Program-made: the position numbers and the translations under genes
In this document: piece by piece, positions 39,094-40,755 of the stretch
Position numbering within the stretch: the first letter of the stretch is position 1
Layout of the letters: each line of letters opens with the position of its first letter
From: Ardenticatena sp.
GTDB taxonomy: Bacteria; Chloroflexota; Anaerolineae; Ardenticatenales; Ardenticatenaceae
Assembly: GCA_015487975.1 (NCBI GenBank)
Contig: WFOS01000076.1
Span: forward strand, 11,091-75,090
Reading direction: 5' to 3'
Length of the DNA stretch: 64,000 bases
The notes under the pieces: generated by a model
Seen by the model: only the letters and a program-made list of their open reading frames with translations
Databases searched by the model: none
What the model was told of the DNA's origin: nothing

Positions 39094-40755
39094 GTGCCCA
39101 AGCGTCTCATCAGCGCCATCGCGCGCCTGCTCCCCACATTCATCGTTCTGTTTGTGCTGGCTTGGTTGGCACTGCACACCACCCCCAGCCCCCTGCGCGG
39201 CAAACCCGCCGCCTACCCGCTGACCGAGACACTCTCCCCCGAACAGCGTCTCGCCCAAGACCTTGCTCTGGCCGATCCGCGCGTGCAGGCATTCACCACT
39301 GGCCGCCGGAGCGAAGTCTTCGGCGTGCGGCGCATCCGCAACGACGTGCCTGCCAGCGCTGCCGAATGTCGCCAGCCCAATACCGATTGCCGCCAAGTCG
39401 AACTCTACATCTTCGACGAAGACGCTGCCGTAGTCGCCATTGTCAATCTCACAACGCGCACTGTGCTCGATGTCTTCTACCAGCCAGGCGTCCATCCCGG
39501 TATCAACAAACGCCTCGCAGAGTTGGCGCAAACCATCGCCATGAATGCCCCCGAAGTTCAGCAGGCGCTGGGGTTTCGCCCCACCAGTGTGGACATGGCG
39601 CCCGTGGACGCCGACATGATCGACTCCGTGTGCGAAGAAGGGCACCTCTGCGTGGGACCAACATTTCGCGTTGGGAATCGCATCCTCTGGGCGATCGTGG
39701 ACCTGACCGACGAGCAACTTGTCGGCACCAACTGGACGAGCGTTGCCCCTGATGGCACGTCCATCACTTTCACCGCCCAAGCATGCCCTCAGCCGGGTAC
39801 CATCCAACGCGACGGGTGGTCGCTCTCCTACGAAACCACATCCACCGATGGGCTACGCATCTTCGACGTTTCATTCTATACCCACACGCTGCTCACCAGC
39901 GCCAAACTCATCGAATGGCACGTGGATTATGGGACCACAGGCTTCCGCGATTCAACCGGCTGTGGCAATGATGGGGGTGGCTTTACCATCGCGCCCTATG
40001 GCGAAACCGAGATTCGCGATTTGCGCGATGCGAACGATGTCTATCTTGGTTTCGAAGTCGTCCAAGATTTTCGGATGGAGGAATGGGGCGCCTCATGCAA
40101 CTATCGCTACGAGCAACACATGCAATTTTTCACCGACGGCCGCTTTCGCATCGTGGGGGGCGCGTATGGACGCGGGTGCAGCACCAATCCCATCTACCGT
40201 CCCGTCATGCGCATCGATGTGGCCATAGATGGCGACGACCATGACACCCTACGCACGTCCAATGACAACGGCCAAACGTGGACACTTGCAACCAGCGAAG
40301 CATGGTGGCTGCAAAACACGCCCACCACCGATTGGATCATCAGCGACACGCTCACCAATACCGCGTACCGCATCATCCCCGCCGAACCGGGGATGTTTTC
40401 CCCCGAAGAACGTGGCGACTACGCCTACCTCTACCTCACCCGCCACCACCCCGACGAAGGCGACAGCGACCTGGGCGTGCTGGGCAGCTGCTGCAACGAC
40501 AACCACCAGCAAGGCCCCGAGCTCTTCATCGATGGCGAAAGCACCACCGATACCAACCTGGTGCTCTGGTACGTGCCGCAAATGCAAACAGATGCCAACG
40601 GCGACGATGCCAACGGGTTCTACTGCTGGACCGTCAACGGAGAACCCACCCCCGAAGCCTACCCGTGCTTTGCCGGCCCGCTGTTCGAACCGCTCACCCC
40701 CATTGCACGCCCACAGCAACACATGTTCCTGCCCCTCATCCAACACACTCCCTGA
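39094..40755 (+). CDS. Membrane-anchored/exported protein with a divergent copper-amine-oxidase-like catalytic-domain fold
   Basis: GTG 39094 is preceded by GAGGAAACGAGG. N-terminal anchor 'LLPTFIVLFVLAWLAL'. 'DGWSLSYETTSTDGLRIFDVSF...IEWHVDYG', 'SCNYRYEQHMQFFTDGRF', 'RIDVAIDGDD', 'LYLTRHHPDE' and 'TNLVLWYVPQM' line up with conserved CuAO blocks as I remember them. The protein ends 'FLPLIQHTP'. Confidence 0.65.
   Translation: MPKRLISAIARLLPTFIVLFVLAWLALHTTPSPLRGKPAAYPLTETLSPEQRLAQDLALADPRVQAFTTGRRSEVFGVRRIRNDVPASAAECRQPNTDCRQVELYIFDEDAAVVAIVNLTTRTVLDVFYQPGVHPGINKRLAELAQTIAMNAPEVQQALGFRPTSVDMAPVDADMIDSVCEEGHLCVGPTFRVGNRILWAIVDLTDEQLVGTNWTSVAPDGTSITFTAQACPQPGTIQRDGWSLSYETTSTDGLRIFDVSFYTHTLLTSAKLIEWHVDYGTTGFRDSTGCGNDGGGFTIAPYGETEIRDLRDANDVYLGFEVVQDFRMEEWGASCNYRYEQHMQFFTDGRFRIVGGAYGRGCSTNPIYRPVMRIDVAIDGDDHDTLRTSNDNGQTWTLATSEAWWLQNTPTTDWIISDTLTNTAYRIIPAEPGMFSPEERGDYAYLYLTRHHPDEGDSDLGVLGSCCNDNHQQGPELFIDGESTTDTNLVLWYVPQMQTDANGDDANGFYCWTVNGEPTPEAYPCFAGPLFEPLTPIARPQQHMFLPLIQHTP

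Follow-up and report, generated by a model that had tools for sequence, protein, structure and literature searches.

We analyzed a 64,000-nucleotide stretch of DNA from Ardenticatena sp. (contig WFOS01000076.1), called here the window, and focused on one gene at positions 39094–40755 of its forward strand. The coding sequence, stop codon included, starts with GTG and specifies a 553-residue protein, P0002, which has the fold of the copper amine oxidases (CuAOs). The start codon, taken from the open reading frame (ORF) list and its translation, agrees with the N-terminus of the Ardenticatena maritima homologue (83% identity), and a purine-rich stretch, gaggaaacgagg, lies immediately 5' of the coding sequence. 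Gene order in the window is RadA, P0002, a PucR-family regulator and two glutamine synthetases. The P0002 gene is single-copy in its own genome, and no canonical CuAO was detected there at E ≤ 0.01 (94%-complete assembly). In CuAOs, topaquinone (TPQ) is the textbook self-made cofactor, requiring one tyrosine, one copper and O2. The P0002 family keeps the organic parts of this arrangement and deletes the copper site. It is thus a natural experiment: either the pocket serves a purpose that needs no quinone, or such a cofactor can be made or used by a second route that depends on partners.

P0002 shares the copper amine oxidase fold

Direct sequence searches were insufficient to establish the relationship. 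The Pfam model PF01179 matched only residues 236–282 of P0002 (21.1 bits, E 1.7e-4), below its gathering cut-off of 27, and the NCBIfam primary-amine oxidase model scored 14.3 bits against a cut-off of 651. A phmmer search of PDB sequences with P0002 gave no match. With a profile built from 30 family sequences, only CuAOs were matched, at E-values of 0.47–1.9, and hhalign of the family against TynA alone returned a probability of 1.5%. Profile–profile comparison was far more telling. When an alignment of 109 diverse relatives, reaching down to ∼25% identity, was compared with a CuAO alignment made of E. coli TynA and 14 Chloroflexota CuAOs found with PF01179, hhalign gave a probability of 99.6% (E 7e-24) when run globally and 98.9% when run locally.

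The predicted structure points the same way. In a Foldseek search with the AlphaFold model of P0002 (predicted local distance difference test (pLDDT) 85.4, predicted template modeling score (pTM) 0.84), the top matches listed were all CuAOs, with a best E of 4e-20. VIA-align superposed residues 47–542 of the model on residues 16–624 of AGAO, with 426 residues aligned, a Z of 23.4 and a root-mean-square deviation of 5.1. On the basis of the profile–profile comparison and the modeled structure, we regard the homology of P0002 to CuAOs as settled. A preliminary description of this DNA had proposed the CuAO fold from the letters alone, and the proposal is borne out, even though PF01179 by itself stays below threshold. 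The five sequence blocks it quoted are all found in the translation of 39094–40752 (forward strand): DGWSLSYETTSTDGLRIFDVSF...IEWHVDYG (residues 240–280), GASCNYRYEQHMQFFTDGRFRI (332–353), IYRPVMRIDVAIDGDDHDTL (367–386), YLYLTRHHPDEG (445–456) and DTNLVLWYVPQMQTD (486–500).

Because the superposition spans residues 47–542, domains D2, D3 and D4 are all present in P0002 (the coordinates of P0002 features given here and below are on the forward strand). The D2-like α/β domain comprises residues 47–131 (39232–39486) and carries the conserved pair C92/C99; the structural alignment starts here, with residue 47 of the model matched to residue 16 of AGAO. The D3-like α/β domain, defined from the model and the structural alignment, comprises residues 139–216 (39508–39741) and includes the conserved pair C180/C186. 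The β-sandwich 'catalytic' domain D4 extends over residues 235–535 (39796–40698) and is ∼90 residues shorter than that of TynA. A two-copy homodimer prediction for residues 47–545 returned 'no answer' (score 0.00), which has no bearing on a CuAO-type dimer.

The organic half of the active site is kept and the copper ligands are lost

We compared the active-site positions of P0002 with those of TynA (precursor numbering; figures in brackets are hhalign posteriors). The heptapeptide EWHVDYG (39913–39933) is the counterpart of the CuAO block E-M-x-V-P-Y-G and contains Y279, which aligns with the gate tyrosine, TynA Y399/ECAO Y369 (0.98), and is kept in 108 of the 109 relatives. The counterpart of the catalytic base (ECAO D383/AGAO D298) is D286 (39949–39951), aligned with TynA D413 at a moderate posterior (0.39) and kept in 107. 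The pentapeptide C-N-Y-R-Y (40096–40110) places Y337 at the position of the TPQ precursor, TynA Y496 (0.97), flanked by N336 (N495; 0.93) and Y339 (Y498; 0.98). Here C335 stands in place of the usual Gly and R338 fills the D/E position, turning N-Y-(D/E)-Y into N-Y-R-Y. Y337 is found in 107 relatives, and Y339 and C335 in 106 each. R373 corresponds to R561 of the R-L-D block (0.97) and W492 to the C-terminal Trp, W712 (0.998). Y279, D286, Y337, Y339, Y368, R373 and W492 are each present in at least 97% of relatives, and a threshold of at least 95% adds C335, E402, E455, W242 and W331. Gate Tyr, catalytic Asp and the N-Y-x-Y motif are conserved in ∼98%.

The copper ligands have fared otherwise. 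The H-x-H pair of CuAOs lands in a 6-residue alignment gap, and the ungapped register puts P-I-Y (40189–40197) in its place, with P366 and Y368 at the ligand positions. This register preserves the hydrophobic pattern of the strand, and the model shows a single continuous strand from 367 to 376. Across the family, position 366 is G, A, S or P, and Y368 is invariant. The region of the third ligand, W492–G516 (40567–40641), contains no His and carries a family-specific insertion of 17 residues (498–514) with a model pLDDT of 46–51. TynA H689 falls on G516 (0.29) or, when counted from W492, on T499, both of which flank the insertion. There is no His in residues 360–372 or 493–516 of P0002, and so no choice of alignment rescues a ligand His. 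In the alignment of 109 relatives, His is the majority residue in columns 184 and 276 alone, which do not correspond to ligands, and no conserved His or Met occupies any of the ligand positions. For comparison, the base Asp, the TPQ Tyr and all three His are kept in 15 of 15 aligned CuAOs, including short forms of ∼400 residues. In the P0002 family, then, the organic half of the CuAO site is strongly constrained and the metal half has gone.

These results uphold the preliminary description in its claim that P0002 retains N-Y-x-Y and lacks the three copper-ligand histidines, the ligand columns being P366, Y368 and G516/T499. The loss also holds against a search for shifted histidines in both ligand regions, and the two tyrosines of NYRY, together with E402 and E455, proved to be conserved among the relatives. 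As to function, two options had been offered, a non-catalytic derivative of the fold or an enzyme with different cofactor chemistry. That either/or still stands, and the conservation of the pocket leans toward the second. In a dead pseudoenzyme, these are the very residues whose loss one would expect.

A non-catalytic P0002 would be a binding or structural protein of the cell surface, its conserved Tyr, Asp and Trp serving in packing or ligand binding. The disappearance of the copper site needed for TPQ formation fits such a protein, as do the surface location, the PKD/Ig fusions and the C-terminal tag described below, which are typical of wall and surface proteins, and a gene neighborhood that varies by lineage. 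Yet the best-kept residues are those of the CuAO pocket, among them the buried D286 and the TPQ Tyr (107/109 each), down to ∼25% identity. Moreover, the repeated linkage to MauG-type genes, to Rieske and redoxin genes and to GSDH genes, including fusions, would be unexpected for a structural protein. We consider this explanation unlikely.

P0002 is an anchored, cysteine-rich extracytoplasmic protein

Residues 1–28 of P0002 (39094–39177) comprise K3, R4 and R11 followed by a hydrophobic helix, modeled from residue 3 to 28. The same feature is present in all full-length relatives. This N-terminus reads as a signal anchor, which would place the bulk of the protein outside. An exported or membrane-anchored P0002 had been proposed earlier, and both the sequence and the model agree with it. 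Many relatives additionally carry C-terminal PKD/Ig domains.

Twelve cysteines are conserved in the family alignment. Where relatives lack them, they are lost pairwise (92/99, 180/186, 335/362, 466/467 and 511/525), and C335 and C362 are jointly missing in exactly the same three sequences. This pattern of paired loss suggests disulfides, fitting an extracytoplasmic protein, and a C335/C362 disulfide is likely. Because the cysteines disappear in pairs, C335, next to the N-Y-R-Y tyrosines, would be structural and not a free thiol. Overall, P0002 is a signal-anchored, cysteine-rich, extracytoplasmic member of the CuAO superfamily with a complete D2–D3–D4 architecture.

A copper-less family alongside true copper amine oxidases

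P0002 shares with CuAOs such as TynA and AGAO (PF01179 plus the N2/N3 domains) the D2–D3–D4 fold and the positions of the TPQ Tyr, the gate Tyr, the catalytic Asp, the R-x-D block and the C-terminal Trp. It differs from them in lacking the three copper-ligand histidines, in having Arg for Asp/Glu after the TPQ Tyr and Cys for Gly two residues before it, and in a D4 domain marked by several deletions besides the 17-residue insertion. The twelve conserved cysteines, the membrane anchor, the C-terminal tag and the sub-threshold Pfam score also set it apart. Since the His3 copper site is absent and the score falls below the curated Pfam threshold, we do not file P0002 as a CuAO. It does descend from CuAOs and would work much as they do.

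The family comprises 651 clusters at 90% identity and 248 at 50%, mostly from Chloroflexota. Its members are labeled only 'hypothetical' or 'PKD domain-containing' in Pfam, NCBIfam and the source records, and a fold and a working hypothesis are now available for them. Our literature search brought up no work on copper-less proteins with the CuAO fold. Of clades devoid of the TPQ motif, a phylogenetic review of CuAOs treats only eukaryotic ones, and the plant clade reported to lack the motif is the reverse of the pattern seen here.

Three short CuAO homologues from the same phylum (L019–L021, GTDB family f32) are likewise divergent, and consist of a shortened D4 domain only. Unlike in P0002, the copper ligands (HxH pair and third His) are intact, as are the catalytic Asp and the Tyr (in G-A-Y-N-Y), so that these proteins look like true copper enzymes. 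They are 398–404 residues long and score 134–139 bits with PF01179, versus ∼510–555 for ordinary CuAOs. L020 and L021 come from genus g48 and L019 from g90; in g48, short CuAOs co-occur with the copper-less family. Full-scoring Chloroflexota CuAOs (L011, L012, L014, L016 and L018) have the motif G-I-Y-(D/E)-Y, with Ile for the usual Asn before the TPQ Tyr.

Gene neighborhoods of the P0002 family

We surveyed 79 other species-level loci of the family, up to 10 kb on each side, using hidden Markov models of candidate neighbors. The neighborhood differs between lineages, and several gene types recur. A MauG-type di-heme gene lies within 10 kb in 15 of the 79 loci; it is adjacent to the family gene in nine, and in three more a GSDH gene alone stands between the two. 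In a FastTree phylogeny of the family, these loci fall into at least four separate clades, and the di-heme genes themselves belong to three different subfamilies. In GTDB family f16, for example, an MbnH-like di-heme gene is the divergent neighbor of the family gene. Its product scores 317 bits with TIGR04039, below the cut-off of 363, and its best PDB match is 6e1c (2e-72). At the level of whole genomes, CCP_MauG is a rarity in the phylum, present in 18 of 201 sampled, yet it occurs in 8 of the 13 that carry the P0002 family; within f16, the same 7 of 13 genomes hold both.

The arrangement is reminiscent of MauG with pre-methylamine dehydrogenase and of MbnH with MbnP, in that di-heme genes adjoin P0002 relatives in several clades and both partners would be extracytoplasmic. 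Unlike in those systems, the link consists of gene neighborhood only and is absent from the window. In addition, the fold of P0002 is unrelated to that of methylamine dehydrogenase or MbnP, and the candidate target is a Tyr, not a Trp. An NCBIfam scan to an E limit of 10 gave P0002 only a weak match to primary-amine oxidase and none to MbnP, a weak negative given the speed filters of HMMER.

The MbnH-like neighbors raise the question of a remodeled site for copper or another metal, with non-His ligands such as Y368, conserved carboxylates or a modified residue (as with the kynurenine of MbnP), that would make TPQ or a related cofactor. The invariant Y368 occupies the place of the second His ligand, E402 and E455 are each retained by 95% or more of the relatives, and MbnH builds the copper site of MbnP by oxidizing a Trp (PMC11951088). 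A TlpA-like extracytoplasmic redoxin encoded near the family gene in 16 loci, 15 of them Rieske-type, would also suit a metal-binding protein. On the other hand, no His or Met is conserved at any ligand position, the NCBIfam scan gave a negative, if a weak one, for kinship with MbnP, and the third ligand would fall in an insertion that is modeled with low confidence. A site of this kind is decidedly unlikely.

A second context is defined by a small Rieske gene, located immediately upstream of the family gene in 18 of the 79 loci and joined by a redoxin gene in 15. The MauG and Rieske contexts never occur in one locus. P0002 groups with the main Rieske-context clade (support 94), yet has neither a Rieske nor a MauG neighbor. 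All five Rieske-context genomes that we checked encode CCP_MauG proteins elsewhere. One lipoprotein-type redoxin upstream of a Rieske gene, in an Ardenticatenaceae metagenome-assembled genome (MAG), has an in-frame TGA (L002:7185–7187) at the first Cys of its redox motif, F-W-T-F-G-TGA-I-N-C, and gene calls are split likewise in L003 and L006. This could be a selenocysteine-containing U-x-x-C redoxin.

The most frequent neighbor is a GSDH-family (aldose sugar dehydrogenase family) gene, within 10 kb in 33 of the 79 loci. Moreover, five protein clusters (P0082, P0114, P0123, P0277 and P0278) are fusions of a GSDH domain with the P0002 family. This association, the strongest of all, bears on a further possibility: that an unmodified Tyr and Asp, together with the conserved Arg and Trp, carry out non-amine chemistry, for example on an extracellular glycan, with GSDH taking the product. 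Both the invariant aromatic and Arg-rich pocket (W242, W331, W492, Y279, Y337, Y339, Y368 and R373) and the commonness of PKD fusions would be in keeping with this. Yet there is no carbohydrate-active enzyme among the structural matches listed, the top ones of which are all CuAOs, and no carbohydrate-enzyme family was matched in Pfam or NCBIfam. The linkage to MauG-type genes would also be left unexplained. We think it improbable that the chemistry is of this type.

The PucR and glutamine synthetase genes next to P0002 are a different matter. The preliminary description had noted these neighbors and read them as a nitrogen/amine-metabolism context. The genes are indeed there, and the order RadA–P0002–PucR–glutamine synthetase–glutamine synthetase is shared with A. 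maritima, as would be expected if P0002 belonged to a PucR-controlled nitrogen/amine catabolic unit. The metabolic context, however, is not supported by the survey: neither PucR (0/79) nor glutamine synthetase (0/79) occurs within 10 kb of a homologue in the other loci. In the window, a palindrome, TGTGCA-N3-TGCACA (40791–40805), starts 36 nt past the P0002 stop codon, and farther on, at 40844–40873, the PucR gene has a promoter-like site that includes an extended -10. These features are consistent with PucR being a separate transcription unit. A scan for promoters and terminators around the P0002 gene gave nothing decisive for that gene itself. It is thus very improbable that P0002 is part of such a unit; the PucR and glutamine synthetase genes would form one of their own.

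Candidate partners in the Ardenticatena genome

The genome to which the window belongs encodes two MauG-like proteins, on contigs C6 and C50, and two GSDH proteins, on C83 and C103. The C6 protein (463 residues; L044:928–2316, reverse strand; C6:16212–16847 and surroundings in the genome itself) is 45–51% identical to twelve MauG-like proteins encoded next to family genes in other genomes. It scores 297 bits with TIGR03981, below the cut-off of 340, and its C-terminal region aligns to MauG, BthA and MbnH only. The C50 protein, which has a β-helix domain, shares 50–57% identity with four other family-adjacent ones. No obvious partner gene lies beside either of them; the C6 gene is flanked by a polysaccharide-synthesis gene and CRISPR RAMP genes. 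The genome holds no close orthologue of the Rieske protein, the only match being weak (23% identity).

Proposed function

Several lines of background bear on what P0002 may do. Yeast CuAO substituted with cobalt reportedly still turns over, so that copper matters more when TPQ is made than when it is used. TPQ itself forms autocatalytically, for which the His3 copper site is required (PMC11951088). With H2O2, MauG-type di-heme enzymes oxidize residues of partner proteins, the products being tryptophan tryptophylquinone (TTQ) for methylamine dehydrogenase and kynurenine for MbnP (PMC11951088, PMC11892367). The reading that we favor, with rather less than even confidence, is that P0002 works outside the cytoplasm as a redox enzyme, with its TPQ pocket retained and with a dependence on partners acting in trans. 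The pocket would still be catalytic, its substrate probably being an amine, or a related compound, that is extracellular or bound to the surface, and the work of the built-in copper, which is to make TPQ and to help re-oxidize it, would have been taken over by those partners. The most likely supplier would be a MauG/MbnH-type di-heme enzyme, which would install or maintain a modification at Y337 or close to it, with a GSDH-type dehydrogenase taking part in that extracytoplasmic pathway. In the Ardenticatena genome these partners would be encoded away from P0002, as the MauG-like proteins of C6 and C50 and the GSDH proteins of C83 and C103. E. coli tynA, which adjoins the aldehyde dehydrogenase gene feaB, offers a loose parallel to the GSDH link.

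A narrower version of this proposal is less probable still. It holds that the family is a copper-free branch in which a Tyr-derived quinone or related cofactor at Y337 is installed by a MauG/MbnH-type enzyme, and which acts alongside GSDH-type dehydrogenases in a pathway of extracytoplasmic oxidation. If true, it would represent the first route to a TPQ-like cofactor that is enzymatic instead of autocatalytic, as well as the first MauG-type enzyme with a Tyr target. Either way, candidate partners can now be named: MauG/MbnH-type di-heme enzymes, GSDH dehydrogenases, and the Rieske protein with its redoxin.

A number of observations weigh against partner-dependent catalysis by P0002. The posterior of the D286 alignment is only moderate (0.39). 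The window has no MauG-like, GSDH or Rieske gene beside P0002, and the MauG-like and GSDH genes of the genome are unlinked to it. The C6 protein has His at the position of the MauG heme ligand Tyr294, and its best PDB match is 3orv, the Y294H mutant of MauG; in MauG, this Tyr-to-His change reportedly abolishes TTQ synthesis. The 18 Rieske loci, 15 of them with the redoxin as well, have these genes in place of a MauG-type gene and are not accounted for by this reading; in the Rieske protein encoded there, no signal peptide is seen. Genus g48 of f32 (five genomes) has the P0002 family and no CCP_MauG at E ≤ 1e-10. Finally, the reviews consulted gave no precedent for a MauG-type enzyme with a tyrosine target.

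A C-terminal tag and other features of the family

The pentapeptide F-L-P-L-I (40726–40740) lies five residues before the stop codon of P0002, in the tail ...MFLPLIQHTP, just as the preliminary description had reported. Our literature search found no description of such a tag. Counting P0002, 22 long ORFs of the same genome have the pattern [YFH][LF]P[LFIVM][IVL] among their final 11 residues, versus ∼2 expected. These ORFs have a median length of 775 residues, against 230 for all ORFs, and their endings are mostly YLPLVLR-like (also FLPFVVR and YLPVILR). In most of those listed the N-terminus is hydrophobic, whereas the tag is not followed by any hydrophobic stretch. The window contains a further example, a 1341-residue ORF on the reverse strand (24201–28226) that ends in YLPVIFR. 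Relatives of P0002 end in the same tag, even after PKD domains. The tail has the look of a sorting or processing tag peculiar to this lineage of Chloroflexota.

In genomes of f16 and f32, the family gene is directly followed, on its downstream side, by one for a conserved membrane-anchored protein of ∼340 residues that Pfam assigns to no family (L037:8131–9153, L038:6523–7605, L040:10835–11827 and L042:10042–11607). The sole hint to its nature is a weak NCBIfam match to a 7-bladed β-propeller (E 6e-4). A relationship between this P0273-like protein and GSDH was considered and dropped, the hhalign probability being a non-significant 1.3%, and a search of the Ardenticatena genome with that query found no counterpart.

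Family genes also occur in tandem. In MAG278 (L023/L054), three paralogues (5377–6876, 7007–8914 and 9001–11127) follow one Rieske gene. The first encodes 499 residues, has the motif C-E-Y-R-Y and, as read from its sequence, seems to be missing the D2 domain. Tandem pairs are found in L022, L072 and L083.

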